Below are positions 19,562 to 53,977 of a DNA stretch of 53,977 nucleotides, piece after piece (the stretch's first letter is position 1; every line of letters begins with the position of its first letter). The notes under the pieces were generated by a model. The model ran no database searches, was not told where the DNA came from, and saw only the letters and a program-made list of their open reading frames with translations. This stretch comes from an uncultured bacterium (GTDB lineage: Bacteria; Patescibacteriota; Minisyncoccia; Phycocordibacterales; UBA9973), in assembly GCA_903907175.1 (NCBI GenBank), contig CAIVNB010000036.1, positions 1-53,977 on the forward strand, in the 5' to 3' direction. Both the position numbers and the translations under genes were made by a program.

Positions 19562-19757
19562 TAATGTCTGCCCGCCTTTGGTGGGAGGCTGTATAATTAA
19601 TTCCAGATTGGCTTTTTTTAATTATATGCTATCATGCAGACAATGAGAGTTCTTTGAAGTTGTATTTAGGTTGCATTAGTTGGATTGTTTTTGTTCCCAA
19701 GTTTTTAGAAATAAAGACAGTTCAATTAATGTTACAAATAATCTAAATTTTGAAAGT

Positions 19758-20039
19758 ATGCAGACACAAACAGTAGAAACAATATCAATCATTGATTGGT
19801 ATGTAGAAGAAGTTGAAAAGGAGTTGGGTGGACGTCCCGACAAAAGAGAAAAGTTCATAGAGGCGCTAAAAGAAAATCCTGAGACAGTTCAGGAAGAAAT
19901 CAAGGCTCACAGGAAGAGCAGTCTTGCAAGTGCATTCAGGTCTGGTAAGGTGAAGGGTTTTTGCAGCGATGTAATTAACCCTGATCAGTTTGCAGTAAAC
20001 ATCCTGCGTGCTCTCCAGGTAAGGCTTCTTAATAATTGA
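19758..20039 (+). CDS. Hypothetical 93-aa protein with G+C-richer composition than its neighbours
   Basis: The ORF track entry 19680-20039 is trimmed to the first ATG at 19758. A strong terminator follows. I do not recognise a family. Confidence 0.45.
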   Translation: MQTQTVETISIIDWYVEEVEKELGGRPDKREKFIEALKENPETVQEEIKAHRKSSLASAFRSGKVKGFCSDVINPDQFAVNILRALQVRLLNN

Positions 20040-31481: not shown

Positions 31482-31569
31482 ATTTTAGTGTAATTTATTT
31501 TTGCTTTGTACGTCATTTATTAAGGTAACCAATTTTTTGGTTATTTTAATAATATGTTATAATCAAATT

Positions 31570-33102: not shown

Positions 33103-33105
33103 ATA

Positions 33106-33813: not shown

Positions 33814-33814
33814 C

Positions 33815-35062
33815 ATGCTCTTTAAAGATGCTTTTAAAACTTCAACTCGTAGCCTTATGCATGGAAAGATGCGTTCTATTTTAACAATGCTTGGTATTGT
33901 TATCGGCATAGCTTCTGTAATTATCTTAATGTCTATTGGTCAGTCAGCCCAAGATCTAATCCTAGGTCAAGTTCAAAGTGTTGGTTCGAACTTAATTATT
34001 ATTACTCCTGGTGCACCCAACAATGGTAAATTTTCTTCGCCAGCTTCAGCGCAAGGAATAGTAATAACCAGTTTACAGCAAAGAGATGTTGATTCTATTA
34101 GTAGAGAACCTTCTGTAAATGAAGCAGCATCGTTTGTTAGTGGCATAGCAGAAGTTGTTTTTGGAAATAATAATAAAACGGTAAGTTATCAAGGGGTTAC
34201 TTCTAATATGTTTTCAGTAAGGAATCTTACATTAGGCAAAGGATTTGTTTTTACAAAAGGGGATGTAGATTCTGGAAACCATGTTGTAGTTATTGGGCCT
34301 GATCTTGCAAATACTTTATTTGGAACTACCTTAAGTCCAATTGATAAAACAATACGAGTAAAAAATGTTTCATTCCGTGTTGTTGGAGTGTTGAGTAAAG
34401 GTGGCGTTGGAGCTTTTGGTGTTGATCAAGGAAATATTGTTATTATGCCGATAACAGTTGCTCAGAAGCAATTACTTGGAATTTCTTATTTAAATGTAAT
34501 CCTTGCACAAGCAAATCCTACCTATGATATCAATTTTGCAAAATCACGTATAACTTTTGCATTGCGCCAGAATCATGGCATAACTGATCCAAATAAAGAT
34601 GATTTTAATATACAAACGCAAGCAGATATATTGGCAATCTTAGGGACAATTACTTCTATTTTCACATTATTTTTAGCAGCGATAGCGTCGATTTCTCTGA
34701 TAGTTGGCGGTATTGGTATTATGAATATAATGCTTGTTTCTGTTACTGAAAGAACAAGGGAAATTGGGCTCCGTAAAGCCGTCGGTGCAACAAATGGTGA
34801 TATATTACAGCAATTTTTAATTGAGTCAGTTTTGTTAACCTTCACCGGTGGTGCTATTGGAATAGCTATTGGAGGAGGGGTTGTTGGTCTTATATACATT
34901 GTTCTTAAGAATTTTTCTTCTATTGGTTGGGTTTTTGCTTTTCCTATTTCATCTGTAATCCTTGGCTTGTTAGTGTCAGGGATAGCAGGTATCGCTTTTG
35001 GAATTTATCCAGCATATCAGGCTGGCAAAAAGAACCCAATTGATGCCTTAAGATATGAATAA
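33815..35062 (+). CDS. ABC transporter permease, MacB-like (periplasmic core domain plus FtsX domain)
   Basis: ORF track, 415 aa. Motifs: MRSILTMLGIVIGIASVI, TERTREIGLRKAVGA. Confidence 0.88.
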   Translation: MLFKDAFKTSTRSLMHGKMRSILTMLGIVIGIASVIILMSIGQSAQDLILGQVQSVGSNLIIITPGAPNNGKFSSPASAQGIVITSLQQRDVDSISREPSVNEAASFVSGIAEVVFGNNNKTVSYQGVTSNMFSVRNLTLGKGFVFTKGDVDSGNHVVVIGPDLANTLFGTTLSPIDKTIRVKNVSFRVVGVLSKGGVGAFGVDQGNIVIMPITVAQKQLLGISYLNVILAQANPTYDINFAKSRITFALRQNHGITDPNKDDFNIQTQADILAILGTITSIFTLFLAAIASISLIVGGIGIMNIMLVSVTERTREIGLRKAVGATNGDILQQFLIESVLLTFTGGAIGIAIGGGVVGLIYIVLKNFSSIGWVFAFPISSVILGLLVSGIAGIAFGIYPAYQAGKKNPIDALRYE

Positions 35063-39319: not shown

Positions 39320-39964
39320 ATGAGTATGAAGAAAATGAATGATGAAATAGTAAAAAAAGATAAAAATAAAGAAAATGAACCTTCTCTAATTACAGAGGGC
39401 AGTCCTTCCGAAGTAGATAATTCTGAGGTTCTTGAATTTGAATTCAATGATGATGGAGAAGAAGACTTAAAAAAGACCATTAAAAAAATGCGTGCCGATT
39501 TAAATGCATGCAAGAAAGAAAAGGAAGAATATCTAATTGGTTGGCAAAAAGAACGAGCAGATTTTGTAAATTATAAAAAACAAGAAGAAGATAGAAAAGC
39601 TAACTTTTCGGAAAGCTTGCGTGAAAGAATCTTGACTCGGTTTTTGACCGTTGCGGATAGTTTCAATATGGCATTTGCAAATCGTGAAGCATGGGAGAAA
39701 GTAGATGAAAATTGGAGGAAAGGAGTGGAATATATTTATACTCAAATGAACACGATCTTTGAAGAATATGGGGTTAAAAGTATTGGTGAGACAGGGGAAA
39801 GCTTTGATCACAATATTCATCATTCTATAGAGATGGTTTTTACAGATAAAAAAGAAGATGATCATAAAATTGCAGAAGTTATTCAAAAAGGATATAAATT
39901 AGGGGATAGAGTAATTCGTCCCGCTCGAGTGAATGTATTTGAGTATCATGAATCAGGGAACTAA
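39320..39964 (+). CDS. grpE: Nucleotide exchange factor GrpE
   Basis: ORF track, 214 aa. It has an acidic N-terminus, a coiled coil and a C-terminal beta domain (VIQKGYKLGDRVIRPARV). Confidence 0.85.
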   Translation: MSMKKMNDEIVKKDKNKENEPSLITEGSPSEVDNSEVLEFEFNDDGEEDLKKTIKKMRADLNACKKEKEEYLIGWQKERADFVNYKKQEEDRKANFSESLRERILTRFLTVADSFNMAFANREAWEKVDENWRKGVEYIYTQMNTIFEEYGVKSIGETGESFDHNIHHSIEMVFTDKKEDDHKIAEVIQKGYKLGDRVIRPARVNVFEYHESGN

Positions 39965-41642
39965 AAGATGCAAGAATTGCGAACAGAACTTTCTCATAGA
40001 GACTGAAGATTTTAATTTTTACGAAAAAATAAAAGTTCCACCACCTACTTGGTGTCCGGATTGTCGTCAGCAACGACGTTATGCCTGGCGAAACGAGCGT
40101 ATTTTATATCGCAGAGATTGTGATCTTTGTGGTAAGAGTACCGTTACTATTTATTCACCGAATAAGAATTTAAAAGTATATTGTATAAATTGCTGGTGGG
40201 GAGATGGCTGGGACCCTGCTTCTTATGGTAGGGATTTTGATTTTTCGCGTACCTTTTTTGAACAATTTAAAGAGCTTCAAACTGATGTTCCTAGAATTGC
40301 AGTATTTAATAAAAATAATATAAATTCTGATTACACAAATCATTCTGGTGACAACAAGAACACTTATTTATCTTCTTGTGCCTTTCGCGATGAAGATGTC
40401 ATGTATTCAAATTGGATTATGAAATCAAGAAATTGTATGGATTGTAGTTATATTTATGAAAGCGGAGAAACGCTATATGAATGTATTGATTCAAGAAAAT
40501 CTTACGAATGTCAGTATGGATTTTTATTAGAAAATTGTATGAATAGTTTTTATTGCTACGATTGCCATAATTGCAATAATTGCTTTATGTCTTCTAATTT
40601 ACGTAATAAAAATTACGTCTTTAAGAATAAACAATATTCTCGTGAGGAATATATAGAAAAAGTGAAGGAATATAATTTAAGCTCATACAAAACTCGTGAA
40701 AAATTGTACAAAGAATTTATAGATCTAATGAAATATGATTCTGTGCATAGATATGTTGTAAGTGAAAGAAATGTAAATTGTGATGGTAGTATGCTTTTTA
40801 ATAGTAAGAATACAAAAATTTGTTTTGATTCAGACTATGTTGAAGATTCAAAATATATTTATTCAGTTACATCATTAAAATCTTCTATGGATTTATATCA
40901 TATAGGTTGGGGTACAGAACTTGCATATGAAATACATGGAAGTAAAGGTTATTACAATTGCCAATTTTGTAATCATAGTGCTGATAATACAAACATGATG
41001 TATTCTGATTCTTGCCAAAATTGTGAAAATCTTTTTGGTTGTATATCTGTTAAAAAAGGTAAGTATATGATCTTGAATAAAAAATATGAAAAAAAAGAGT
41101 ATGAAGTTTTAAGAGAAAAAATTATTGAACATATGAAAAATACCGGAGAATTTGGAGAATTTTTTCCACCAAATATTTCACCATTTTGTTACAATGAAAC
41201 TCAGGGGAATTATTATATGCCACTAACAAAAGAAGAAGTTTTGGAGCGTGGTTGGAAGTGGGAAGAAAAAATTCCTGGAGTATTTGGAAAGGAAAATATT
41301 AAGGGAGAAGATATCCCAGATAAGATTGAAGAAGTGGGTGAAGATGTATACAAAAAAATATTCAAATGTATTGATTGTACTAAAAATTATAATATTGTTC
41401 CTGATGAATTTTCTTTTTACAAAAGAGAAAAAATTCCGTTACCTAGACGTTGTCCTGAATGTAGATACAAAAAAAGATTTGCAATTCGAAGCCCACGCAA
41501 ACTTTGGCACAGAAGTTGTATGTGTGAAAAAAAGAATCATGATCACGCAGAAAAATGTAAAACAGAATTTGAAACTCCTTATTGTCCTGACAAGGAAGAG
41601 AAAGTATTTTGTGAAGAATGCTACAACAAAGAAATTTACTAA
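39948..41642 (+). CDS. Cys-rich multi-zinc-ribbon protein of unknown function (paralogue B)
   Basis: The ORF track entry 39933-41642 is trimmed to ATG 39948, because MNQGTKRCKNCEQNF aligns with MNRESKICQNCKKDF of paralogue A. It overlaps the grpE 3' end by 17 nt. Confidence 0.8.
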   Translation: MNQGTKRCKNCEQNFLIETEDFNFYEKIKVPPPTWCPDCRQQRRYAWRNERILYRRDCDLCGKSTVTIYSPNKNLKVYCINCWWGDGWDPASYGRDFDFSRTFFEQFKELQTDVPRIAVFNKNNINSDYTNHSGDNKNTYLSSCAFRDEDVMYSNWIMKSRNCMDCSYIYESGETLYECIDSRKSYECQYGFLLENCMNSFYCYDCHNCNNCFMSSNLRNKNYVFKNKQYSREEYIEKVKEYNLSSYKTREKLYKEFIDLMKYDSVHRYVVSERNVNCDGSMLFNSKNTKICFDSDYVEDSKYIYSVTSLKSSMDLYHIGWGTELAYEIHGSKGYYNCQFCNHSADNTNMMYSDSCQNCENLFGCISVKKGKYMILNKKYEKKEYEVLREKIIEHMKNTGEFGEFFPPNISPFCYNETQGNYYMPLTKEEVLERGWKWEEKIPGVFGKENIKGEDIPDKIEEVGEDVYKKIFKCIDCTKNYNIVPDEFSFYKREKIPLPRRCPECRYKKRFAIRSPRKLWHRSCMCEKKNHDHAEKCKTEFETPYCPDKEEKVFCEECYNKEIY

Positions 41643-41657
41643 AAACTATAAACAAAA

Positions 41658-41683
41658 AACCTGACAATTTTGTCAGGTTTTTT
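41658..41683. terminator. Bidirectional rho-independent terminator
   Basis: aacctgaca (41658-41666) pairs with tgtcaggtt (41671-41679) in a perfect 9-bp stem. A T-run follows and an A-run precedes it. Confidence 0.75.
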
Positions 41684-41691
41684 GATGTTTT

Positions 41692-41976: not shown

Positions 41977-42181
41977 TGATAAACATTACTAGACAAGTGG
42001 AAAACTTTTCAATCTTTATTAATGTTTCGAAAATATTTTGTTTTTTTAATTTTTATTTCCTTAAGTATGTTTTTTTAGGTTTCAAAATGAGTTTGAGAGT
42101 TATTCTAATAGAAATTGGAGAACTTTTGAGCCAGTATTTCTAACATAAAAATGAATATATTTTTCTATATATTTTATTTTA

Positions 42182-42213
42182 AAACACTCATAAATCACGA
42201 TTTATGAGTGTTT
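42182..42213. promoter_or_regulatory. Perfect 14-bp inverted repeat (candidate operator or RNA hairpin) upstream of the giant gene
   Basis: aaacactcataaat-cacg-atttatgagtgttt. There is no T-run after it. It lies 95 nt upstream of ATG 42308. Confidence 0.5.
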
Positions 42214-42266
42214 AGATTCCTCTTTTAATTTTTATTAAAAAACACCAAAATACCTGGGTTTTATTG

Positions 42267-42295
42267 TTGTTAAAGGTTTTTCGTTAGTTTATAAT
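42267..42295 (+). promoter_or_regulatory. Possible promoter of the giant gene
   Basis: TTGTTA (42267-42272), 17-nt spacer, TATAAT (42290-42295). This would give a nearly leaderless mRNA, so the call is weak. Confidence 0.25.
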
Positions 42296-42307
42296 ATATA
42301 GGTAAAT

Positions 42308-45300
42308 ATGAGAAAATTTCTCCACGAAAAAATTAAATTTTTAAAAAATTCTACTATTTGGTTAATCGATAAAACGAACCTCGATTTTTTCTATCGTAGG
42401 CGAGTGCGTGATAAATTAAAACTTCTAGAAAACTTTAAGAATCAAAAAATTATCAACTTTAAAAATAAATTAACAACTAGCAATTATAAAAAAATGGAAA
42501 ACTTATTAAAACAAATAAATAGAAAAAGAAAAAATATATCTCAGCTATTTCGAGAAGTCAAAAAAATAAAAAGAGCCCAAGTTTTAGTTAGTCTTGTTTT
42601 AATTTTTTCTCTAGTTTCTTTTTTTTATAATCCTAAACTAGTTGAGGCTGCGGGGACAGTTAATATAACATATAGCACGAGTCCAGCTAAAACAGGAGTG
42701 GTTACTATTACGGCTACTTATTCTAAAGCAGTACCCCAGACTCCAAATATAAGCATCAACCAACCTGGATCAATAGATATTTCAAATCAACCAATGACAG
42801 GAAGTGGAACAACTTGGACTTATGACTATACTGTTAATTCTGCTAATGGTAGTACTTATATTGATGGCACAACTACAGTAACTTTATCTAATGAGTTTAC
42901 TCCAGCTGTTAGTGCAACAGGAGGGACAATTACATACACAGATTCTTCAGGATTAAATCCGAGATCCTCGCCAGCTTATTCTGGTGGTTATACGGTGCAT
43001 ACATTTATTACAGGAGGAACTTTTTCTGTTGTTTCAGCAGGAATAGTCGATGCCTTAATTGTTGCTGGTGGAGGTGGAGGTGGATATTATAATGGTGGAG
43101 GAGGTGGTGCAGGAGGAGTAATCTATAATACATCGTATTCTACAACAACTGGGAATATTACTATTACCGTGGGAACTGGGGGAGATGGTGGGGTGTCTGG
43201 AAATAATACATCTGCATACGGTAAAAATGGAGGAAATTCAGTATTTGCATCTTTAACTGCTTATGGTGGTGGTGGTGGAGATAATGCATATTATGGTCTA
43301 GGAGCAGGTAATGCAGGAGGTTCAGGTGGCGGAGGAAATGGTGGGGGAAGCGGAGAAACTGGACAAGGATACAGAGGAGGAAATTTTGCTGGAGGAGCTG
43401 TTAACGGAGGAGGTGGAGGAGCAGGAGGAATTGGGGGACAAAGTAATGGAGGAACGGGTATTAGTAATTCAATTTTAGGTTCTTCTAATGATTATGCTGG
43501 TGGAGGTGGGGGAGGTCAACTTGGATCAGGAAGTTATGGCGGAGGAAGTGGAGGAGGACAAGCCAAAACTCTTGCTACTGCTGGAACTGATGGGACAGGA
43601 GGAGGTGGTGGTGGAGGAGGAGGAGGATATGATCCCTACGCTATTGGAAGAAAAGGCGGTTCTGGAATAGTAATTGTAAGATATCCTACAGATGCTCAAA
43701 CTTTTAACGCTTCAAATAATACATTCTCAATTGATACGACCAGCCCAGCTCTTTCTGGAGCTACAATAGCATCTGTTACCGCTGACACTACACCTGACTT
43801 TACGTTTACTTCAAGTGAAGCAGGAACGATAAGTTACGGTGGTTCATGTTCTTCTGCTATCACTAGCGCAATTTCAGGTTCTAATACTGTAACTTTTAAT
43901 ACCCTTACAAACGGTACTTATAGTAATTGTACTGTGACGGTGACCGATGTTGCCACAAATGCTTCTACTGCTCTTTCTGTGCCGACGTTTTTAGTGGACT
44001 CTACGGCTTTAATACTTTCTTCAGGTACTCATGCTTATAATGCATATACTTGGTCAAATTATGCAAACGTTTATATTATCGGAGCAGCAAGTTTCCAAGG
44101 AGGGGCAAATGCTTTTAATTTTGGAGCAGCAAACTTATCTATCAAAAGTGGTGGATCACTTATTACCTTACCTTCAGCTACAACTGGATCTGGTGCAGTG
44201 GGAGTTACAATAAGTACCACAGGAAATATTACGATTGACTCTGGAGGTTCCATTAATGGAGCCGGAAGAGGTTATGCTGGTGGTGCAACAAGCTCTTCAG
44301 GTAAAGGAGAAGGTGCTGGAGCTTATGGACAATGGGAAGGTTCTAACGGAGCTTCTCATGGTGGAACAGGAGGAAAAGGAATATCAAATGGCGCAGTTGC
44401 TGCAACTTATGGATCTTCAACAAGTCCAGTGACTCTCGGTTCTGGTGGTGGTGGTTATGGTAATGGAAGTGGTGGAGCTGGAGGTGGAGCAATAAAATTA
44501 AGTACAAGTGGAATAGTGACAGTGAATGGAACTATATCTACAAATGGATCTAATGGTTCAGGCGGAGGAGGTGCGGGAGGAAGTGTTTGGATAGTTGCTG
44601 GAACTTTAATCGGTAGTAATGATGCAATTATTTCTGCCAATGGTGGAACTGGTGGTGGTTACAATGGTGGAGGTGGAGCAGGTAGAATAAAATTAGAAAC
44701 TACTGGAGTAGATACTTATGCTGGGTCTGTTAAGGTTGAAGGATCTCGGGGTCTTACTGCAGGAAATTCGGGAAGCATAGAAAGAACTGTTGGTACTCCT
44801 GGTACTATTACTATAGCTGCAGGTAAAACTGTAATTTGGACAAAAGGAGATCATACTTTTAATAATGTAATTATTGAATCGACTGGAGTGCTTTCTGGAG
44901 GACTTGCTGAAGCAGGAGGAACTGGTGCTTCTTATATGAGTTATTATTATGGTGGTGGAACTGGGCCAGGACGTTCTGGATTTGATAGTTCTGGTGGAGC
45001 AGGTCACGGTGGTGTGGGTGCAAGTGGAAATACTAGCCATAGTAGTTATGGTGCTGGTGGATCGACTTACGATTCAGCTACGGCTCCAGCTCTGACAGGT
45101 TCAGGCGGAGGCGGAGGAGATGGTGGCATATATGGTGGCTCTGGAGGAGGAGCAATAAAATTAACTATTACAGGTACATTAACTAATAATGGAAGTATCT
45201 TGGCAAATGCTACAGCGGGTACTGGAGGTGGTGGAGGTTCAGGGGGAAGTGTTTGGATTAATGCTCCGGGTGCTACTGTTACTGGGGCTGGTGTATATTC

Positions 45301-48300
45301 TGCAACTGGAAGTTCTTCTAGCAATGGAGGAGGTGGAGGAGGCGGTAGGATATCTTTCACTGCAGGAACAAATTTAAATTTTTCTGGAACCCCTACTATT
45401 ACAGTTACAGCTGGATCAAGTGGGTCTGGTTCGCCTACTGCGGGAGTTGGAACAGTATATGGTATTATGTATTCTGGAGTAACTAGTCCTACTGCTGGGC
45501 AGACATTAAAAACACTTTCAACAGTTACAGGAACTTCCGGAGATTATAGTGGTGGTACTATTACTGGTGTTAAAGTTTCTATAAATAAAGGAGGTTTATG
45601 TTGGGGTGGAAGTAGTTTTAATCAAGCCTGTCCATATTTTACTTCCAACAGTGCAACAAATACTGGTACAAATTTTTCAACTTGGTCTTTTGCTTTTCCT
45701 TCATTCACAAGTTCACTAGCAGGAGATAGTATAACAATCCAATCACAAGCAACGTCTTCTACCTCAGGAACTGAAGCCGTAGGAGCCGGTGTCGCTTTTA
45801 CTTTCGATAATGTTGCACCAACAAATCAAGATACAGTTTTTAGCACAAACACAGAAAGGCAAAGTGGAGCTAACGTAACAGTAACCAGTGCAGCAGAGAC
45901 AGGTGGTGCAATATGGTTTGCACCAAATGGAACTTCAACATTTTCTGCTGGAGCAACTATGACTACTGCTAGTGGAACAGCGACATTGATTGCTGCACCA
46001 GCTACAGTAGGAGCTTATCGTCTATATATTATCGACGCAGCGGGTAACGTTTCTTCTGCATCGACAGCTATTTTAACTGTTGATAATACTGCACCGACAA
46101 TAACTTCTACTACACCAACAACGAATGCATATATTAGTACTTCAACAGTTAGTTATACTTTAACAGAAGCAAATACGGTAGCTTCCGGATCAGTAACTTG
46201 GACAAGAACAGGTGGGACAGCCGATGCCGGTTCACCACATATACAAGCTCTAACTGGTGCAGAATTAAATATTGGAGCCCATGCAAATATTACTCTAACA
46301 AATAATCCGACTCTCGTTGATGGAACTATATATGCGATTACATTTGATGCTACAGATAATTCTGGAAATGCTGCAACTCAAGTTTCAAGTACTGGAGTTA
46401 CTTACGATACAATTCCACCTGGAGTGACTCTCTCAACAACGGTCGTCGGAGGTTTAACGAATTTACCGATACCAGTCACTGTTACCTTTACAGAAGATGT
46501 AACAGGTTTTGACAGCACTGATATTACCCTTGGAAGTGGAACAGTATCTTCATTCTCTGGAACAGGTTCCGTTTATACATTTACCGCTAATCCAACTTCT
46601 CAAGGAACTGAAACAATTAACATCGCTGGAAGTAAGGCAGTAGACTTAGCGGGAAATAACAACACAGCTGCGACACAATTATCTATAACCTATGATACCC
46701 AAGCACCGACGGTGACCTATCCGACAAACGTTGCCCAAAGGTTAATGAGTACAAATACTTCGACTTCTACAGTTGCACTAGATGAAGCGGGAATAATTTA
46801 TTTAGTAAAAAATGGAACGGGTTCATTAACTGCTCAAGCAGATTCTGCTAACCTCACTGGTCTTGTAATCAGTGGCTCACCTTCGGGCTACACATTTTCA
46901 GGTGGTACATATATTTATAATGGAGTGACGACAGGATCAAGTAGTGTGACAGTAACTCCGACAGGTGCAGGAACGATCACAGTCAATGGTACAGTAGTCG
47001 CATCAGGAGTTGCCTCAAGTGCAATTGATTTAAGTGGTGGCACAGAACAGACGGTCACTGTGACGGTAGTAGAAACGAATAAAAATTTAAAAACTTACGT
47101 TGTTAAGATACTTAAAGTATTATCTTCAACTGGTGGAAATTTTGTAACAGAAAGTGGTGGTTATCGTACTCATGTATTTACTAGTAGTGGAACTTTTACT
47201 TCTAGTGGCTCTTTGACAGGAGAGGTTTTTCTTGTCGGAGGTGGAGGAGGTGCTGCAATATATTCTGGTAGAGGTGGAAATGGTGGTCAGGTAATTGATA
47301 ACGCTTCAGCTTCTATTTCTAGTGGTTCTACTACTGTTACAGTAGGTAGCAATGGTCTTGGAGCGGCAAATTGGCCAGCTCCTTGGAATGGACCAGCAGG
47401 GCAAAATGGAAGCTCTTCGTATTTTGGAGCATTAGTAGCTACGGGTGGAACTGGAGGATCTAGTGCTTGTTGTCAGAGAGGAGGTGATGGTGCTGGTGGT
47501 CAAGGAGGTTCGTATAATACTGGCACTACAAGAGGACTTGGCGGTCCTGGTGTTACTTATAATAACTTTTCTGGATCACCAGTGACCTACTTTGCAGCTG
47601 GTGGAAATAGTGGTGATGGAGGAGCAATTGGTGGAACAAATACTGGAACTGGTGGAGGTGCAATAAACTCAAGTGCCGGTGGACAAAATGGTGGTACTGG
47701 TATCGTTATAGTTAAAATACCTATTGGGGGGACTCAAACTCCAATGCAGACTATTCCAACTTTAAGTTCAACCTACGGAACAAACGTTTCAACAACAATT
47801 TCATCTTCAGGTGCAAATGCAATTTATTACACAACTGATGGAACAAACCCTACTGTAAGTAGTACTTTATATACAGGAGCAATTACTACAAGTAGTGCAA
47901 GAACAATAAAAGCAATTGCAGTGAGAACAGGATATGACAATAGTCCTATCGCAACTATTTCATACGTAGTTGATTGGAATAATGCAATTAATGTCGGGCA
48001 TACGGCATTTAGTGTTGCTAACCCTGCCACTGCGACGACTCCTTATCAGGCTACTTTACCAGCTGGTTTAATTGATGGAGCATATGATGCTGTCGCAATA
48101 GATACAATCGGAAATACATCCGCCCCACTTACTAGTTGGTTGACAGTAGACAATACTGCACCGACAATAACGGTAACTTCGAACGCGACTGGCTCAGGAT
48201 GGTTGAAGATTGGTGATACAATTGTTTTCACAATCACACCTACGACGACTGAAGCTGATGCTACAGTAAATGCAGTTACTTATAATGGTGAGGCTCTTAC

Positions 48301-51300
48301 TTGGAGTACGGCAGATAGTGGGGCACATTATACTGCCACCTATACAGTGATCCAAGGTCAGACTGACCAAGCATCTCCGCTTCAATTGACCGGAGTTACT
48401 TTAACTGATGTCGCAGGGAATGTCAGTACTTCGGCAGGTACCTCAGATGTCGCAAAAAAAATTGATGCAAATTTACCAACAAACCAAAATTCAGTTTTTC
48501 CTTCTAACTTTGCAACTCAAGGAGGTGGTACTGTTACAATAAATTCATCCGGGGATACGACAAATGGTGTTTGGTTTGCCCCAGCAGGTACGACTACTTT
48601 TGTCGAAGGAACTACGATGACGAAGACGACAAATGGTCTTGCTACTTCAATCCTTGCCCCAGTCACAGATGGAATATATAAATTATTTGTTATTGATGCA
48701 TCCGGAAATATTTCAAGTGCTTCAACTGTAACTCTAACCGTAGATGCAATTGCTCCGACTACTTCTGCTCCGATTAATGTTGCTCAAGTATTAAAAGGCG
48801 GAGCAGTGTCAACTTCTACGGTTCAAACAAATGAACAAGGAAAAATATATTTAATTAAAAATGGAGTGGCTGCGGCTACTCAAGCGAATCTAGATGCAGC
48901 AGTTAATACTAATCACAATGGATTCGTCGGTCAGACTACTGCTTCGGGAGGTATTGCTTATACGGTAACTTTACCGGCAGACTTAGTGGATGGAGTATAT
49001 GATATTGTCGGAGTAGACTTAGTCGGAAACATTTCGAGTCCACTTGCTGGTTGGCTAACAGTTGATAATACTGCACCGACATCTATCGTAACAAGCCCAA
49101 CAGACAATCAACTCGTCGGGGCTCTTACTTCTATTTCTGGAACTGCTACTGACACTCACTCCATCAGTGCTCAAAGTATTTCTATTAAAAATACCACAAC
49201 CAATAAATGGTATAACGGTACGAGTTTCACCGACGACACAGAAAATTTCTTAACTGTGACTCCGGGGGCAACTTGGACTTACTCTACTTCGGGAATTACC
49301 TGGTCTTCTAATACTTCTTATATTTTGAAAACCAAAGCTACTGATATTGCAGGAAACGTTGAGACTCCTGGTGCTGGTACAACATTCACTATAGATAGTA
49401 TTGCTCCAGTATCGGTAATTACTGCTCCTATAGATGCTTCTTTTAAAAATGCAGTAACTTCAATTTCTGGAACTGCGACAGATACGGGAACTGTTTCCTT
49501 GTCAGAAATATCAATAGAAAGATTATCGGATCATCAGTGGTACAGTAGCGGATCATTTTCATCGGGCACAGAAGTATTTTTAGCTGCTACCGGAACAACC
49601 GCTTGGTCTTATGCGATAACTTCTGATAAATTTACTACCAATACTGAGTACAAAATAAAATCTCGTTCTACGGACGATGCAAGTAATGTCGAAACTCCAG
49701 GAGCAGGAATTACGTTTACTTTTGATACGACCTTACCTACTTCTACCATTACTGCGATTTGTAGTGTAGGAGGAAATGGTTGTACTACTGTCGGCCAAGC
49801 ATCTAGTCCTCAAGAATCATTTAGCGTTCAATCAATTGCTGGTACTACTACCGATACGGCAGGAGGAGCAGGGGTTGCCTCAGTAGAAGTTTCAATAAAA
49901 GATACCACTACGAACAAATGGTACAGTGGAGCATCTTTTGTGGATAGCACAGAGACTTATCTTCCGGCCGTGGGTACTGATACTTGGAGTTACAATTCTT
50001 CAGCAATGTCTTTGGTGATCGGACATATTTATCTAATTCATGCAAAATCAATCGATAATGCTACTAACGTACAAAGTCCTGTTCAAGCTCTTTCTTTCCA
50101 ATTCACTAACTCTCCGCCGACTGTTTCCGCTGTGACTGCTTCGCAAGATTCAAATGGAGTAGTGAATATTACTTACAATGTTACTGATAATGAATCTTCT
50201 CAAACCACAAATTATCTTTTCTATGGGGTTTGGGCTACCTTGAGTGGCACAACCACAAGTGGAGCAACTTCATTCACTCTTTCAGATGCAACAAACTTTC
50301 CAGCTAGTGGAACGATTCTCATCGATGATGAAATAATAACTTACACGAGTAAGTCAGGAAATATTTTACAAGGACTTACTAGAGGAGCTTCTGGAACAAC
50401 TCCATTTGCGCACACAGATGGGGAAGTATATATAAAAGCTAATTCTGCCACTGGAAGTGGTATCGGATTATCAGACAAAGGAACAGGAAAAATCATAACT
50501 TGGCAAGCAAGTACGGATGCTGATGGTTATGAAAGTACTAGTGAAGTAATAAAAGTTGTTGCGAACGACGGGGCGACTGGTTCAATGATAGGCTCTGCTC
50601 CTTCTCCTCAATTTATTCTTGATGCGGCTAAACCTACTCTAACGGTTACCACTTTCTTAATAAACGATACTGATGCTGATGTCGTTGCAACTTCTCCGAA
50701 TGTAGTTTTCAAACTTCAAAATGTTGTGGGTCATCCAGCCAATGAAAATATTCATATAAAGTTTTCCAAAGATAGTGGAACTACTTGGTATGGAGCAAAT
50801 GCAGATCACTCTCTAACTCTAGGAGGAGCGGGTTCAGAATTTTCTTCTGATCCAGCAGTATTAAGTACTCTATATTGGAATTTTACAATGGCCTCAAGAT
50901 CAGAAATTTGGATTGTAAAAATGACAGACAGTTCGAGTAACGTATCGACAACCGATGACAACACCGTTGGTTATAACGCAAAACCGGAATTTGATGCAAG
51001 TTTCGGAACGGATGGATTAAGTGTTTCTCAAATATCTGACAAACTAGATCTAAATTGGGGTAAGGTAAAAATAGATTATAAAGTTCGTGATACAGACAAC
51101 ACTTCTGCAACTCCGACATTTAGTTTTGATGGAACTGGTGGGACAAATTTTACAACAATAAATCAAGCAGAAATATCTGGTATCTCAACAGACATAACCT
51201 CTACTTATACTTTACATACGGTGTACTGGACGCCTGTAGCAGAATCAGTTTCAACACTGAACGCTAGTTTTAAAGTTGAGATTAACGACGGAGAGCCAGT

Positions 51301-53977
51301 TGCTAACACTGCGTCAAAAACTATTTCATCTATTATAGTAGACGCAAAGAAGCCAGTAGTTGGAACTACTGTAACATTTGATGCAGGCGTAGCAGGGGTC
51401 GCAGAATCTGCAATTATAACAATCCCGAAACCTACTGACGATTCAGCTATTCAATATAGAATACAAGACAATGTTTCTAATTCTCCAGTAGTAGATACTG
51501 GATGGGTAAATCTCCTGTCTTCTACTACTATACCTTGGACTTTTGATTCCGATTCAGAAATAAAAACAATCAAATATGAATTTAGAGATGCATATGGGAA
51601 TATAACTTCCGAAACTTCCACCTCAACTCTCGCTCCAATAACATCAGGAACATTCTTAATACAAGATACGTCAAACATAAATGTTTCTCCTATGGTCAGT
51701 CAACTTTATATTAGTTGGCAACAATTAGATGCCCCAGCCACTGGTTTTAGCTCTTATAAATTAGAGTATGCTTATTCTACAAATGGCTCTTCGTATTCAA
51801 ATTATGCAGACGTACCAGACCCACTTAATTTATTGTCTAATTATTCTACGAATTATTATATTCACAAAGATTTAACTTCTACTTATTTCTACAAATATCG
51901 ATTAGGGGTAAAAGGTACAAATCAAAATATCTCGATGCGAGTAGGAGAATCTGTTATTGCAAAACCAGATGGTAGCCCTAACTATGGTGAAGGAGCAGGA
52001 GCTAGCATAAATTCTTCTACAGTAGAGAGTGTTGTACCTATTCAAAATGCTACAACAAAAAATGTAACTGTTACATACAAACTAACAGATGCTACAAATG
52101 ATAAAAAAACTTCACCGGCTTATGATGCACGAATATTTTATGATATTGGAGTTACTCTTGGGACAAATCCATATAATGGAACAACACTGAAAGTTTCAAG
52201 TACATCAAAATTAAAATCTTCGGGATATATACAAATAAATAATGAGGTTATTAAATACACGGGGAAAACAGATACTACTTTGACAGGACTTACGAGAGCC
52301 ACCTGGCCAACTGAAGACACTCGGGCTACGAGATCTAATGGTGTAAGTTTCTTGGCTGGTACTCCTGTTTGGGTCATGGCTTCAAATACCACGCCTACTA
52401 ATATTTCTGCTATTCCTGTAGACAACACTACTATCAAGAGTGGTTACAATGGAACAATTGCTTGGGACACATATTATGAATCTGCCCTAGCAGGTAGTAC
52501 TTATAGCGTTGTGCCTATTAGAGTTCTAGTTCATGATAACCAAGATGCTCTCTCGGGGCCTCTTTCAAGTCAGAGTGATTATTCAGAAAATGGTACATTA
52601 AGCGATTTTGATTTATCAGCTCCGACAATTTCTTTTAATGGTAGTACATCTTCTGGGTTGGAAAGTGTAACTCCAGCTACGTTTACTATCAATCTAAGTA
52701 GAGCTTATCCGATAAATTCTACGGTGCATTATGTTGTTACAGGGACTGCTCTCGGAAGTGGAGGAAATGCAGACTACAGCGGACTTGCATCAAGTGGTGA
52801 TATAACATTCACAGCAGGAGATACACAAAAGACTTTGATTGCAACAATAATAAATCATTCTCTTGTACGAGCAAATAAAACAATAATTGTAACATTATCA
52901 AGTCCTACAAATTCAACCCTAGGAACTAATCCAGTTTATACTTATACAATATTAAATCATGGAGCAGATACGACACCTCCAGTTGTGACATTAAGTGGAG
53001 ATGCTTCAATGCATGTTCTAAGTGGCACGACATTTTCAGATCCAGGGGCAACGGCGATAGATGATGTTGATGGAGATATAACTTCAAATATTGTTGTCAC
53101 AGGATTGCCTATCATGAATACTCCAAGCGCAACTCCTTATGTTGTTACTTATTCTTCAACAGATAGTTCAAATAATATTGGAACTGCAAATCGCGATGTT
53201 TATGTTGATGATGCAAATGCGGCAACTTTTGATATTACAGCAACTTCTGGCGCAAATGGTACAGTCACTCCAGATGGCGTGACAAATGTACTTGTTCATT
53301 CAAATAAAACTTACACCATTACTCCTTCCGATGGATATAAAGTTGCGACCATCACCGTAGATTCTGATTCTGTTACACCAACTGTTGGTATAAATCATTA
53401 TACTTTTACAAATATAACTGGACCTCATTCTATTACTGCAACATTCTCTGCATTGCCTGATACAACAAAACCTACAATTACACTTATTGGACTTGCAACT
53501 GTTCCAATCACTGTTGGTGATACGTATATTGATGCAGGTGCAACAGCTTCTGATACATACCTTGGAGTCACTACGGATTTAACTTCGAGTATTGAAGTTG
53601 TTAGTAGTGTAAATACATCAGTGTCTGGAACTTATAAAGTTAAATACACAGTTGCTGATGCAGCAGGAAATGTCGCAACAGCCACAAGAACTGTAAATGT
53701 TTCCTTAAATGCAACTTATACTATTACCGCAACAGCTGGTGCTCATGGAGCGATTTCTCCGATTGGTGCAACATCAATAACTACTGGGCATGACTCTACG
53801 TTTACCATCACCCCCGACGCAGGATATCAAACAGCAACTCTAACAATCGATGGCGTAGGTAGAGCAGTAGCATCTTCTTACACATTTACAAACGTAGTTG
53901 CTGATCATACAATTGCTGCTACATTTTCTGCAGCTGCTGATACTACAAAACCTACAATAACCATAATAGGACCAACC
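42308..53977 (+). CDS. 5'-complete, 3'-open giant ORF (at least 3,890 codons) encoding a modular cell-surface/adhesin-like protein
   Basis: My own translation gives an in-frame TAG at 42299-42301, ATG at 42308, and no stop seen through 53977. It is missing from the ORF track only because no stop lies inside the window. The translation has coherent domain structure throughout. Confidence 0.9.
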   Translation, partial: MRKFLHEKIKFLKNSTIWLIDKTNLDFFYRRRVRDKLKLLENFKNQKIINFKNKLTTSNYKKMENLLKQINRKRKNISQLFREVKKIKRAQVLVSLVLIFSLVSFFYNPKLVEAAGTVNITYSTSPAKTGVVTITATYSKAVPQTPNISINQPGSIDISNQPMTGSGTTWTYDYTVNSANGSTYIDGTTTVTLSNEFTPAVSATGGTITYTDSSGLNPRSSPAYSGGYTVHTFITGGTFSVVSAGIVDALIVAGGGGGGYYNGGGGGAGGVIYNTSYSTTTGNITITVGTGGDGGVSGNNTSAYGKNGGNSVFASLTAYGGGGGDNAYYGLGAGNAGGSGGGGNGGGSGETGQGYRGGNFAGGAVNGGGGGAGGIGGQSNGGTGISNSILGSSNDYAGGGGGGQLGSGSYGGGSGGGQAKTLATAGTDGTGGGGGGGGGGYDPYAIGRKGGSGIVIVRYPTDAQTFNASNNTFSIDTTSPALSGATIASVTADTTPDFTFTSSEAGTISYGGSCSSAITSAISGSNTVTFNTLTNGTYSNCTVTVTDVATNASTALSVPTFLVDSTALILSSGTHAYNAYTWSNYANVYIIGAASFQGGANAFNFGAANLSIKSGGSLITLPSATTGSGAVGVTISTTGNITIDSGGSINGAGRGYAGGATSSSGKGEGAGAYGQWEGSNGASHGGTGGKGISNGAVAATYGSSTSPVTLGSGGGGYGNGSGGAGGGAIKLSTSGIVTVNGTISTNGSNGSGGGGAGGSVWIVAGTLIGSNDAIISANGGTGGGYNGGGGAGRIKLETTGVDTYAGSVKVEGSRGLTAGNSGSIERTVGTPGTITIAAGKTVIWTKGDHTFNNVIIESTGVLSGGLAEAGGTGASYMSYYYGGGTGPGRSGFDSSGGAGHGGVGASGNTSHSSYGAGGSTYDSATAPALTGSGGGGGDGGIYGGSGGGAIKLTITGTLTNNGSILANATAGTGGGGGSGGSVWINAPGATVTGAGVYSATGSSSSNGGGGGGGRISFTAGTNLNFSGTPTITVTAGSSGSGSPTAGVGTVYGIMYSGVTSPTAGQTLKTLSTVTGTSGDYSGGTITGVKVSINKGGLCWGGSSFNQACPYFTSNSATNTGTNFSTWSFAFPSFTSSLAGDSITIQSQATSSTSGTEAVGAGVAFTFDNVAPTNQDTVFSTNTERQSGANVTVTSAAETGGAIWFAPNGTSTFSAGATMTTASGTATLIAAPATVGAYRLYIIDAAGNVSSASTAILTVDNTAPTITSTTPTTNAYISTSTVSYTLTEANTVASGSVTWTRTGGTADAGSPHIQALTGAELNIGAHANITLTNNPTLVDGTIYAITFDATDNSGNAATQVSSTGVTYDTIPPGVTLSTTVVGGLTNLPIPVTVTFTEDVTGFDSTDITLGSGTVSSFSGTGSVYTFTANPTSQGTETINIAGSKAVDLAGNNNTAATQLSITYDTQAPTVTYPTNVAQRLMSTNTSTSTVALDEAGIIYLVKNGTGSLTAQADSANLTGLVISGSPSGYTFSGGTYIYNGVTTGSSSVTVTPTGAGTITVNGTVVASGVASSAIDLSGGTEQTVTVTVVETNKNLKTYVVKILKVLSSTGGNFVTESGGYRTHVFTSSGTFTSSGSLTGEVFLVGGGGGAAIYSGRGGNGGQVIDNASASISSGSTTVTVGSNGLGAANWPAPWNGPAGQNGSSSYFGALVATGGTGGSSACCQRGGDGAGGQGGSYNTGTTRGLGGPGVTYNNFSGSPVTYFAAGGNSGDGGAIGGTNTGTGGGAINSSAGGQNGGTGIVIVKIPIGGTQTPMQTIPTLSSTYGTNVSTTISSSGANAIYYTTDGTNPTVSSTLYTGAITTSSARTIKAIAVRTGYDNSPIATISYVVDWNNAINVGHTAFSVANPATATTPYQATLPAGLIDGAYDAVAIDTIGNTSAPLTSWLTVDNTAPTITVTSNATGSGWLKIGDTIVFTITPTTTEADATVNAVTYNGEALTWSTADSGAHYTATYTVIQGQTDQASPLQLTGVTLTDVAGNVSTSAGTSDVAKKIDANLPTNQNSVFPSNFATQGGGTVTINSSGDTTNGVWFAPAGTTTFVEGTTMTKTTNGLATSILAPVTDGIYKLFVIDASGNISSASTVTLTVDAIAPTTSAPINVAQVLKGGAVSTSTVQTNEQGKIYLIKNGVAAATQANLDAAVNTNHNGFVGQTTASGGIAYTVTLPADLVDGVYDIVGVDLVGNISSPLAGWLTVDNTAPTSIVTSPTDNQLVGALTSISGTATDTHSISAQSISIKNTTTNKWYNGTSFTDDTENFLTVTPGATWTYSTSGITWSSNTSYILKTKATDIAGNVETPGAGTTFTIDSIAPVSVITAPIDASFKNAVTSISGTATDTGTVSLSEISIERLSDHQWYSSGSFSSGTEVFLAATGTTAWSYAITSDKFTTNTEYKIKSRSTDDASNVETPGAGITFTFDTTLPTSTITAICSVGGNGCTTVGQASSPQESFSVQSIAGTTTDTAGGAGVASVEVSIKDTTTNKWYSGASFVDSTETYLPAVGTDTWSYNSSAMSLVIGHIYLIHAKSIDNATNVQSPVQALSFQFTNSPPTVSAVTASQDSNGVVNITYNVTDNESSQTTNYLFYGVWATLSGTTTSGATSFTLSDATNFPASGTILIDDEIITYTSKSGNILQGLTRGASGTTPFAHTDGEVYIKANSATGSGIGLSDKGTGKIITWQASTDADGYESTSEVIKVVANDGATGSMIGSAPSPQFILDAAKPTLTVTTFLINDTDADVVATSPNVVFKLQNVVGHPANENIHIKFSKDSGTTWYGANADHSLTLGGAGSEFSSDPAVLSTLYWNFTMASRSEIWIVKMTDSSSNVSTTDDNTVGYNAKPEFDASFGTDGLSVSQISDKLDLNWGKVKIDYKVRDTDNTSATPTFSFDGTGGTNFTTINQAEISGISTDITSTYTLHTVYWTPVAESVSTLNASFKVEINDGEPVANTASKTISSIIVDAKKPVVGTTVTFDAGVAGVAESAIITIPKPTDDSAIQYRIQDNVSNSPVVDTGWVNLLSSTTIPWTFDSDSEIKTIKYEFRDAYGNITSETSTSTLAPITSGTFLIQDTSNINVSPMVSQLYISWQQLDAPATGFSSYKLEYAYSTNGSSYSNYADVPDPLNLLSNYSTNYYIHKDLTSTYFYKYRLGVKGTNQNISMRVGESVIAKPDGSPNYGEGAGASINSSTVESVVPIQNATTKNVTVTYKLTDATNDKKTSPAYDARIFYDIGVTLGTNPYNGTTLKVSSTSKLKSSGYIQINNEVIKYTGKTDTTLTGLTRATWPTEDTRATRSNGVSFLAGTPVWVMASNTTPTNISAIPVDNTTIKSGYNGTIAWDTYYESALAGSTYSVVPIRVLVHDNQDALSGPLSSQSDYSENGTLSDFDLSAPTISFNGSTSSGLESVTPATFTINLSRAYPINSTVHYVVTGTALGSGGNADYSGLASSGDITFTAGDTQKTLIATIINHSLVRANKTIIVTLSSPTNSTLGTNPVYTYTILNHGADTTPPVVTLSGDASMHVLSGTTFSDPGATAIDDVDGDITSNIVVTGLPIMNTPSATPYVVTYSSTDSSNNIGTANRDVYVDDANAATFDITATSGANGTVTPDGVTNVLVHSNKTYTITPSDGYKVATITVDSDSVTPTVGINHYTFTNITGPHSITATFSALPDTTKPTITLIGLATVPITVGDTYIDAGATASDTYLGVTTDLTSSIEVVSSVNTSVSGTYKVKYTVADAAGNVATATRTVNVSLNATYTITATAGAHGAISPIGATSITTGHDSTFTITPDAGYQTATLTIDGVGRAVASSYTFTNVVADHTIAATFSAAADTTKPTITIIGPT
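42575..42650 (+). other. Single N-terminal hydrophobic segment (signal-anchor or long signal peptide) of the giant protein
   Basis: AQVLVSLVLIFSLVSFFYNPKLVEA/AG follows a ~90-aa basic N-terminal extension. Confidence 0.6.
42983..43689 (+). other. Glycine-rich domain, copy 1
   Basis: GGYTVHTFITGGTFSVVSAGIVDALIVAGGGGGG ... poly-G/N/S ... GRKGGSGIVIVRYP. Confidence 0.6.
44020..45400 (+). repeat. Two ~230-aa glycine-rich beta-helix-like units
   Basis: GGAGGGAIKLSTSGIVTVNGTISTNGSNGSGGGGAGGSVWIVAG...GGGGAGRIKL matches GGSGGGAIKLTITGTLTNNGSILANATAGTGGGGGSGGSVWINAP...GGGGGGGRISF. Confidence 0.5.
46851..47117 (+). other. Cadherin-like beta-sandwich-type domain
   Basis: LTGLVISGSPSGYTFSGGTYIYNGVTTGSSSVTVTPTGAGTITVNG...TVTVTVVETNKNLKTYVVKILK matches the usual pattern of that family (L..L.vS.G.l.P.F......Y...V....s.v.vt......a.v.vnG). 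Confidence 0.45.
47155..47723 (+). other. Glycine-rich domain, copy 2
   Basis: GGYRTHVFTSSGTFTSSGSLTGEVFLVGGGGGAA ... GGQNGGTGIVIVKIP. Confidence 0.6.
47770..47965 (+). other. Chitobiase/beta-hexosaminidase C-terminal-like (FN3-associated) domain
   Basis: The IYYTTDGTNPTVSSTLYTGAITTSSARTIKAIAVRTGYDNSPIATISY pattern is typical of that domain. Confidence 0.5.
49061..50115 (+). repeat. Three tandem ~110-130-aa Ig-like modules
   Basis: Each has ..AP(T/V)S.(V/I)T.P.....(L/V)TSISGTATD....(S/V)....(I/V)SI.......(K/Q)WY.(G/S)..F......FL......(T/A)W(T/S)Y ... D.A(G/S)N(V)E(T)PGAG.TFT.D. Boundaries lie at 49061, 49391 and 49721. Confidence 0.7.
51700..51920 (+). other. Fibronectin type III-like module
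   Basis: SQLYISWQQLDAPATGFSSYKLEYAYSTNGSSYSNYADV...YYIHKDLTSTYFYKYRL. Confidence 0.4.
52615..52960 (+). other. Calx-beta-like domain
   Basis: ISFNGSTSSGLESVTPATFTINLSRAY..STVHYVVTGTA..GNADYSGLASSGDITFTAGDTQKTLIATIINHSLVRANKTIIVTLSSP. Confidence 0.5.
52965..53977 (+). repeat. Alternating Ig-like modules, open at the window end: a (DTT(P/K)P(V/T)(V/I)T(L/I).G) surface-protein Ig type alternates with an InlB-B-repeat-like type (Y.IT(A)T.GA.G.(V/I)(T/S)P.G.......(K/S).(Y/F)TITP..GY....(I/L)T(V/I)D)
   Basis: The module order reads A (52972-53210), B (53225-53460), A (53463-53705), B (53710-53935), then A starts again at 53940. Confidence 0.5.

Follow-up and report, generated by a model that had tools for sequence, protein, structure and literature searches.

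Candidate giant fibrillar surface protein encoded beside a MerR-type gene in an uncultured Patescibacteriota bacterium

Introduction

What kind of protein is encoded by a reading frame that stays open for thousands of codons and leaves the available sequence before it reaches a stop? The question is raised by the last part of a stretch of 53,977 nucleotides (hereafter the window; assembly GCA_903907175.1, contig CAIVNB010000036.1) from an uncultured bacterium of the Patescibacteriota, where a giant open reading frame (ORF) begins next to a small, divergently oriented gene of the MerR superfamily. Our answer is that the ORF is a real, coding gene and that its product is, on balance, probably an exported, fibrillar and adhesin-like surface protein with fast-changing binding modules at its distal end. 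Adhesion, location at the surface and cleavage of the signal peptide are each what we infer from the comparisons below.

Proteins of this size have been described before, also from the candidate phyla radiation (CPR). The CPR predator Vampirococcus lugosii encodes giant membrane proteins of 1,392-4,163 amino acids (aa) that were proposed to recognise and hold the host (PMC8080830), and in Saccharibacteria adhesins are required for epibiotic growth (PMC10633639). Giant surface proteins have been reported in other bacteria (bioRxiv 10.1101/2023.11.21.568195; PMC12863079), among them Giant1-5 of Apilactobacillus kunkeei, in which an N-terminal solenoid is followed by a long stalk (PMC12863079). 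A preliminary description of the window, made from its letters, had presented the product as a prime candidate for attachment to host cells or surfaces; the exported-looking, modular and giant protein agrees with this, but given the giant CPR surface proteins already reported, the claim was overstated.

Reality and extent of the giant ORF

Machine translation of frame 42308+3n gave no stop in 11,670 nt, that is, in 3,890 codons up to the window edge, as the preliminary description had read by eye; with an in-frame TAG at 42299-42301, two codons ahead, ATG 42308 is the first possible start. The remaining five frames of 42308-53977 have 158-336 stops each and a longest open run of 158 codons, and the chance of 3,890 stop-free codons, computed from the local base composition, is about 1e-116. 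The frame was missing from the ORF track for the reason then supposed, the lack of a stop inside the window, as the ORF lister skips ORFs that run off the sequence end; the sole ORF of at least 100 aa that it lists within the region is antisense and 115 aa long (44693-45040). The G/T/S-rich composition noted earlier is borne out by measurement (T 15.7%, G 13.8%, S 11.7%, A 9.3%, with 8 Cys in total), and the G+C content of the ORF is 40% against 35% for the window. The homology of the protein was searched by segments: residues 2601-3400 are 54% identical (E = 4e-240) to a partial protein from a Candidatus Nomurabacteria metagenome-assembled genome (MAG; P0001) and match four other CPR proteins.

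That the long frame is instead an assembly artefact, through chimerism or collapsed repeats, or a dead gene, we hold to be very improbable. The window edge does fall within an array of repeated PF16403 and Flg_new_2-like domains, and the gene at one orthologous locus, L001, is split by a local duplication and a frameshift, so that such genes seem prone to assembly errors. Against this stand 11,670 nt without a stop, compared with at least 158 stops in every other frame, and the state of the repeats: at the DNA level they are merely 60-88% identical (88% at most, over 32 nt; 73-74% over 95-136 nt), and at the protein level 35-56% in a windowed self-comparison, a divergence that would make the collapse of near-identical copies unlikely. 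Moreover, the protein is collinear with independent assemblies, over residues 1-226 and 587-1172 with L001 and over residues 2483-3565 with L003.

A conserved core and a variable N-terminal part

A profile of the residue 2601-3400 region detected 13 loci among the GTDB species representatives, all but three of them labelled Paceibacterota, Nomurabacteria, Paceibacteria or Azambacteria; the close relatives are all Paceibacterota, Nomurabacteria or Azambacteria MAGs, which agrees with the earlier impression of a CPR-type genome. The gene is complete at seven loci, where it has 4,030, 3,990, 3,392, 3,043, 2,911, 2,825 and 2,638 codons. An exhaustive profile search gave 13,279 matches, mostly through the widespread Calx-beta domain, and about 35 of the best 150 representatives (50%-identity clusters), 2,000-5,104 aa long, extend over the family-specific core. 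The relatives carry the NCBI names 'hypothetical', 'DUF5011 domain-containing' and 'fibronectin type III domain-containing', and a literature search on the family found no paper. The earlier statement that no characterised protein matches is thus literally true, since the family itself is uncharacterised, but it conveys too much novelty: collinear orthologues exist in 13 GTDB species and most of the domains are standard Pfam domains. The giant protein joins an uncharacterised family already in public genomes, and giant fibrillar surface proteins are already known.

Two observations concern individual records. Those of L006, L007 and L012 are named as a Thermoplasmata archaeon, a Burkholderiales bacterium and a Clostridia bacterium; they hold clear orthologues including the C-terminal tail, and their contigs are probably mis-binned CPR contigs. 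At L001:9800-10100 (GCA_026396015.1, JAPLXP010000007.1) the gene is annotated as two, NTX85_02785 (849 aa) and NTX85_02790 (1,305 aa, partial); there, the segment encoding TSSDTNLSTTTISVDGGAFVA is duplicated locally and the frame shifts as a result, so that a single continuous gene was probably broken up by an error of assembly or sequencing.

Conservation is distributed very unevenly along the protein. The orthologues from Paceibacterota and Nomurabacteria MAGs (NTX85_02785 with NTX85_02790, and L003, L008, L010, L011, L013 and L014) share with it the leader, the signal peptide, the core, the Calx-beta domain, the PF16403 repeats and a divergent MerR-type neighbour, and residues ~2450-3560 align with every relative (13 loci) at 42-59% identity. 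The N-terminal two-thirds, in contrast, form a different mosaic in each genome and can be aligned only as scattered, reshuffled modules. The Nomurabacteria orthologue at L001 passes from the signal peptide to the solenoid (residues 587-1172 of the window protein) and on to the core, and lacks the equivalents of residues 115-570 and 1172-2315. L008 (MAG ELA281), which is the closest relative by its housekeeping genes, has propeller-like GNGxFVAV...MTSxDGxTW repeats in place of the solenoid and Gly_rich_2, and Gly_rich_2 is absent from all fetched relatives, so that among them the window protein alone has its two modules.

The comparison with L008 also gives a measure of the rate of change. The neighbouring products are 77-93% identical between the two genomes (RpoA 86.5%, L17 93%, S9 83%, L13 77%, GrpE 79% and the MerR-type protein 83%), whereas the giant proteins share 38-59% identity over ~1,300 alignable residues; the gene therefore evolves much faster than its neighbours. 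Judged from the alignments, the change is mainly the gain, loss and exchange of modules in the N-terminal part, a pattern that would be expected under diversifying pressure at an interaction surface.

Leader and export signal

The basic N-terminus of about 90 aa and the single hydrophobic anchor or signal segment of the preliminary description were both recovered (Table 1); in a Kyte-Doolittle scan, residues 90-108 are the only strongly hydrophobic segment among the 3,890 residues. An alignment of the N-termini from 8 loci shows a conserved leader motif, MRKFF.K.IKEN...DL.YFYN.RVK followed by MKxxLxKLNxK, the MRKF... start being common to the giant protein and L001; since the leader is conserved at the protein level among relatives, it is translated. 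All eight aligned relatives keep small residues at positions -3 and -1 (VSA^A, ASA^L, AIA^A, VEA^V, AYA^A, VYA^A and ASA^V, where ^ marks the predicted cleavage site) and a helix-breaking N, P or G a few residues earlier, and a signal peptidase I gene lies inside the window (18309-18878, minus strand). With its basic leader, hydrophobic region and AxA-type site, the stretch of residues 1-112 reads as an extended Sec signal peptide that would be cleaved by signal peptidase I; alternatively, residues 90-114 may form a signal anchor. In function, so long a leader recalls the YSIRK leaders on surface proteins of Gram-positive bacteria and the extended signal peptides found in autotransporters of very large size; neither of these families has a Pfam match in the giant protein.

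Domain anatomy

Table 1. Coordinates of the giant ORF, its predicted parts and the divergent upstream region in the window (^, predicted cleavage site; Ig, immunoglobulin; HTH, helix-turn-helix)
Feature	Coordinates	Strand	Remarks
Giant ORF	42308..53977	+	3,890 codons, open at window 3' edge; 0 stops; orthologues
Basic leader, residues 1-89	42308..42574	+	28 K+R vs 7 D+E (residues 1-90); conserved among relatives
Hydrophobic segment and cleavage-like site, residues 90-114	42575..42649	+	AQVLVSLVLIFSLVSFFY, then NPKLVEA^AG
N-terminal Ig-like beta-sandwich, residues 115-235	42650..43012	+	reused in relatives, 45-69% identity; no Pfam match
Gly_rich_2 (PF21722) copy 1, residues 237-459	43016..43684	+	Pfam and PHROG matches
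Ig-like module, residues 460-569	43685..44014	+	65% identical to L003 residues 680-773
Glycine-rich beta-solenoid, residues 570-1060	44015..45487	+	two ~220-residue units (GGAGGGAIKL, GGGAGGSVWI, GGGGGGRI); no Pfam family; AlphaFold2 model
Ig-like beta-sandwich chain, residues 1061-1624	45488..47179	+	Big_12 (1367-1461), weak Cadherin-like match
Gly_rich_2 (PF21722) copy 2, residues 1625-1803	47180..47716	+	42% identical to copy 1 over 84 residues
CHB_HEX_C_1 / Fn3_assoc, residues 1820-1886	47765..47965	+	Pfam 9.7e-14 and 8.2e-13
Ig-like chain, residues 1887-2450	47966..49657	+	Big_12, Big_3_3, three Big_13-type repeats
Family-specific conserved core, residues 2451-3437	49658..52618	+	all-beta Fn3/Ig-like string; ~50% identical to every orthologue; no Pfam match
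Small phage-like module, residues 2644-2700	50237..50407	+	..SGTILIDDEIITYTSKSGNILQGLTRG..; phrog_4406 'virion structural protein' 3.7e-8
Second phage-like module and host domain, residues 3262-3401	52091..52510	+	phrog_11439 'tail fiber protein' 2.5e-6
Calx-beta-like domain, residues 3438-3536	52619..52915	+	Pfam 19.9 bits, below cut-off 27
Alternating PF16403 (Bact_surface_Ig-like) / Flg_new_2-like repeats, residues 3554-3890	52967..53977	+	Pfam 4.2e-29
Divergent intergenic region, 331 bp	41977..42307		palindrome 42182-42213; promoter-like site 42267-42295
MerR-superfamily HTH protein, 94 residues	41692..41976	-	divergent from giant gene; Pfam MerR 2.4e-8

Behind the leader the protein is, as had been proposed, a chain of beta-type modules: Pfam and NCBIfam detected no catalytic domain across the 3,890 residues, and no NCBIfam model matched at all. 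There are ~30 Ig/Fn3-type beta-sandwich domains (Big_12, Big_13, PF16403 and Calx-beta), and the set of Big_12, Big_13, PF16403, Calx-beta and Fn3_assoc is typical of extracellular stalks; the single match among PDB sequences is an Ig-like domain (2kpn). Beyond what the table gives, a second Big_12 lies at residues ~1948-2046, and the three Big_13-type repeats, between residues 2260 and 2600, are 37-45% identical to each other. The Calx-beta domain is clear in the orthologues, where PF03160 is precomputed. Two PF16403 copies span residues ~3556-3635 and 3724-3798 and a third, beginning at 3880, is cut by the window edge; identity among the PF16403 and Flg_new_2-like internal repeats is 40-56%.

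Two regions stand apart from the Ig-like background. Gly_rich_2 matches its Pfam family at E = 5.7e-24 (whole protein); it has no match among PDB sequences at E <= 10, and a literature search on PF21722 found nothing. The solenoid aligns as two units of ~220 residues with the motifs GGAGGGAIKL, GGGAGGSIWI and GGGGGGRI, is collinear with residues 160-793 of L001, and has 486 unnamed homologues at E <= 0.001, from Bdellovibrio, Planctomycetes, Verrucomicrobia, Lentisphaerae and Patescibacteria. AlphaFold2 predicts a beta-solenoid with good confidence (predicted local distance difference test, pLDDT, 88.3; predicted template-modelling score, pTM, 0.91). Foldseek found no PDB match to it at E <= 0.001, the best and weak neighbours (E >= 0.026, template-modelling score, TM, 0.13-0.26) being beta-helix adhesins and tailspikes, with Ag43, tapirin, EtpA, PfbA and HMW1 among them. 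For residues 2601-3440 of the core, AlphaFold2 gives beta-sandwich domains arranged in a string (pLDDT 77, pTM 0.41), and the structural neighbours are only generic: in the PDB, proteins with tandem Fn3/Ig domains, and in BFVD, phage tail proteins rich in Fn3. With no significant match for the solenoid and generic ones for the core, neither points to a specific function.

Some modules also occur in phage proteins. Each of the two Gly_rich_2 regions matches phrog_2295 (1.2e-32) and phrog_863, annotated 'tail fiber assembly' (9e-13); a tblastn search with Gly_rich_2 against phage genomes gave no match. With residues 2644-2700, which form an internal repeat with residues 3300-3330, tblastn found a virion structural protein of cyanophage S-CAM1 and 'tail tube B' genes of pelagiphages. 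These matches are shared modules and no evidence of a prophage. A phage tail fibre or prophage gene was considered and rejected, as the neighbours are ribosomal proteins, rpoA, grpE, dnaE and hisS and only isolated modules match PHROGs.

The missing C-terminus, as seen in orthologues

Beyond the core, complete relatives hold 760-1,080 further residues and the window protein 330, so that ~440-750 residues (1.3-2.3 kb) are probably missing; this suggests that the window contains roughly the first 85% of a gene of an estimated ~4,300-4,650 codons. In the relatives the core is followed by PF16403 repeats and then by 4-6 Fn3 / Pur_ac_phosph_N domains, and 12 of 12 (L003-L015) end with a nearly invariant Fn3 domain and the tail ESIVDVIFKNFxETFNFIxNV(K/R), together the last ~125 residues of each orthologue (e.g., L008:14004-14378). 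Modelled as a helix, the tail is strongly amphipathic (hydrophobic moment, muH, 0.56; mean hydrophobicity 0.12) and not hydrophobic enough for a membrane span. Neither an LPXTG motif nor a transmembrane segment was found at the orthologue C-termini, and the tail matched none of the NCBIfam sorting signals. The window stops before the C-terminus, and none of its six frames contains the tail motif; an exact 44-mer from the window end had no match among metagenome contigs, and a protein scan of these contigs for an extension returned distant relatives only, at <=65% identity on short pieces.

Together, the Fn3 domain and the tail may constitute a C-terminal element for anchoring or sorting in Paceibacteria that has yet to be described. 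In relatives, the genes that follow the giant gene encode an ATP-binding cassette (ABC) ATPase (~450 aa), which has a long C-terminal extension, and a MacB_PCD/FtsX permease (~405 aa); in L003 and L008 these come after a gene for a ~600-aa membrane protein that has a CarboxypepD_reg domain and matched no NCBIfam model (L003:17460-22430 and L008:14391-17364; also L005, L010, L011, L013 and L014). The giant gene and these downstream genes, whose counterparts would lie past the window edge, may be functional partners or may only share a conserved gene order.

Proposed function and alternatives

In the reading that we favour, the leader would act as an extended Sec signal peptide and be removed by signal peptidase I. 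The conserved C-terminal third (core, Calx-beta and PF16403 and, in the orthologues, 4-6 Fn3 domains and the tail) would form the base nearest to the cell, and its amphipathic tail could lie in the outer leaflet of the membrane or dock to an envelope partner, while the variable N-terminal two-thirds (solenoid, Gly_rich_2 and Ig domains) would project ~100 nm or more outward. A beta-sandwich domain measures ~4 nm, so that ~30 of them and the solenoid would give a fibre of at least 100 nm, an estimate from general domain dimensions. These N-terminal modules would bind a ligand on a host cell or another surface, and module shuffling would alter the specificity, in the manner of fibrillar adhesins and phage tail fibres. 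Several points weigh against this reading. Pfam and NCBIfam find no known adhesive domain in the protein and no ligand can be named, Gly_rich_2 and the solenoid being candidate binding modules of uncharacterised families; the orthologues' tail corresponds to no sorting signal known to NCBIfam; and since the protein's own C-terminus lies outside the window, the argument on anchoring rests on the orthologues.

The topology could also be the opposite, with an uncleaved type II signal anchor at the N-terminus, the N-terminal modules as proximal spacers or shielding, and the conserved C-terminal Fn3 array and tail as a distal tip directed at a conserved target. An anchor was among the possibilities named in the preliminary description; a single hydrophobic segment after a strongly basic leader fits the positive-inside rule, and the C-terminal tail is too weakly hydrophobic to span a membrane. 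We nevertheless think this arrangement unlikely, though it is a serious competitor: the small -3/-1 residues and the preceding N, P or G, kept in 8 of 8 relatives, are the signature of a signal peptidase I site, and in known fibrillar adhesins it is the variable end that is distal. Nor need a surface protein of this kind bind a host, and it may be a structural part of the envelope, such as a coat, an S-layer-like tether or a spacer, that serves architecture or protection against phages or grazers. The locus position, the C-terminal third and the partner genes are conserved across the family, all parts are beta-sandwich or solenoid with no recognised adhesive domain, and the other T/S/N-rich secreted proteins of the window (2446-4698 and 4720-7920) suggest an elaborate surface in general. 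Yet neither an SLH nor another known S-layer domain was found in the giant protein (Pfam, NCBIfam), the wholesale swapping of the N-terminal two-thirds between close relatives fits a determinant of specificity better than a lattice, and there are modules in common with the receptor-binding apparatus of phages; a purely structural role thus appears rather doubtful.

A protein released from the cell, as a component of a biofilm or aggregate matrix or as a phage decoy, would agree with a cleavable-looking signal peptide and with the lack of an LPXTG motif, a further transmembrane segment or a known anchor; but the C-terminal domain and amphipathic tail, near-invariant in all orthologues, and the conserved neighbouring membrane proteins in relatives, point to conserved docking, and we find release improbable. 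A more elaborate version of surface display, quite speculative though less so than release, is a Paceibacteria-specific system that works as a cellular 'tail fibre': the extended signal peptide would export a fibre of 4,000 residues, the new tail would dock it, and the swapping of N-terminal cassettes among strains, phage-exchanged modules included, would set the host, making the gene a determinant of host range. Candidates for a part in docking would then be the products encoded downstream in relatives, namely the membrane protein and the pair of ABC ATPase and FtsX-type permease.

Comparison with known systems

Our preferred reading, an exported fibrillar adhesin, has its nearest counterparts in the fibrillar adhesins of monoderms, which combine a Sec signal, an N-terminal binding region, an Ig/Fn3 stalk and a C-terminal anchor. 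Like these, Giant1-5 included, the giant protein belongs to the range of 3,000-8,000 aa, has a beta-solenoid near the N-terminus followed by a chain of beta-sandwiches, would be extracellular and evolves by exchange of modules or segments; a secretion signal, predicted by sequence rules, and a tandem Ig/Fn3 stalk are both present. It differs in having, within the 3,890 residues, no LPXTG sortase signal, YSIRK motif or known adhesive domain, in its leader, a family-specific basic extension of ~90 residues, and, in its orthologues, in an amphipathic tail that matches no known anchor. An LPXTG-anchored protein appears unlikely, with no LPXTG in the 3,890 residues of the window or at the orthologue C-termini. 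The giants of V. lugosii likewise come from a CPR bacterium with a small genome, are predicted to be surface-located and were proposed to hold the host; compared by description, they contain WD40, TPR and PKD domains, whereas the domains here are solenoid, Gly_rich_2, Big, Fn3 and Calx-beta.

With the beta-helix adhesins of diderms (Ag43, EtpA, HMW1 and the chlamydial Pmp proteins with GGA(I/L/V) motifs) and with tapirins, the protein shares a right-handed beta-solenoid with glycine-rich turns, and even a GGAI-like motif (GGGAIKL), but it has neither an autotransporter barrel nor a two-partner secretion (TPS) domain, and the source organism is expected to be monoderm. An autotransporter or two-partner-secretion adhesin was rejected: no barrel or TPS Pfam domain was found, and the best Foldseek match has E = 0.026 with TM <0.3. 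An adhesin of the RTX or LapA type, exported by a type I secretion system, was rejected as well; the N-terminus is of Sec type, RTX repeats are lacking (GGxGxD occurs once in the 3,890 residues, by chance), and the orthologue C-termini are Fn3. Phage tail fibre and virion proteins have Gly_rich_2 and a ~60-residue module (G.I.I..E.I.Y..K.GN.L.GLTRG) in common with the giant protein and are similarly modular and variable; the recognition of other cells' surfaces may be a further likeness, by analogy. In contrast to them, the giant gene is chromosomal, its neighbours are ribosomal and chaperone genes, no phage genes are close by, and the shared parts make up less than 15% of its product.

Most Paceibacteria are uncultured, and the locus offers a specific and conserved candidate for the means by which they locate and keep their hosts, one that combines a giant, exported-looking fibre, a variable outer part and an apparently dedicated small regulator. 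If the proposed function is true, host specificity might be predictable from a comparison of the N-terminal cassettes of different strains, and the conserved tail could show how very large surface proteins that lack sortase signals are kept on monoderm CPR cells. The interest is moderate, and lies in the extended conserved leader, the invariant amphipathic tail of the orthologues, the phage-shared modules and the contrast in divergence with the neighbouring genes; otherwise the locus is a well-delimited example of what CPR genomes had already led one to expect and introduces no new principle.

Genomic neighbourhood

The preliminary description had proposed looking for synteny of the MerR-type and giant genes, and this is conserved: a MerR-type HTH gene lies upstream of the orthologue at 9 fetched loci, with 55-83% identity (L001 and L004 are on the same contig), and its product probably regulates the giant gene. 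The intergenic region contains a near-perfect palindrome of 32 nt (42182-42213: AAACACTCATAAATC-ACG-ATTTATGAGTGTTT), which we rejected as a conserved MerR operator since it was not found in the relatives' intergenic regions. On the other side of the MerR-type gene, between it and the convergent Cys-rich gene, a hairpin at 41653-41684 with a perfect 14-bp stem and A/T runs on both sides looks like a bidirectional intrinsic terminator. The order rpoA-L17-L13-S9-grpE-HTH-giant is the same in L008, and the two ORFs between L17 and grpE were read as L13 and S9 from their homologues there.

The rest of the window is an ordinary bacterial chromosome. It carries dnaE, hisS, def, fmt, lepB, pth, gap, rpiB and rpe, one gene for cation efflux and one for a hibernation factor, a pair of GH130 genes, and a run of a MacAB-like trio, S13-S11-S4-rpoA-L17, grpE and the Cys-rich gene (569 aa); no RNA families or tRNAs were found in it. 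The Cys-rich gene (39933-41642, plus strand) shares 32 nt with the end of grpE, at a place where one might look for dnaK, and has a paralogue at 13769-15487 (plus strand; 572 aa); both products have many CxxC pairs and, as their sole Pfam match, a weak treble-clef zinc-finger, and a homologue with 40% identity occurs in L011 at 18199-19926. The MacAB-like trio (31501-35062, plus strand) consists of an HlyD-type membrane-fusion protein, an ABC ATPase and a MacB_PCD/FtsX permease, sits in a presumably monoderm CPR genome, and has an ATPase ~40% identical to those that follow the giant gene in relatives. The two adjacent genes for T/S/N-rich proteins (both on the plus strand; 750 and 1,066 aa, no Pfam match) encode short, ordinary signal peptides (..VFA^) and, in the second, a C-terminal transmembrane anchor; their products are candidates for further surface proteins, with a predicted layout for export and anchoring unlike that of the giant protein. 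The GH130 genes (beta-mannoside phosphorylase family) stand in tandem at 10173-13335 on the plus strand, and the second of them (643 aa) has two GH130 matches.

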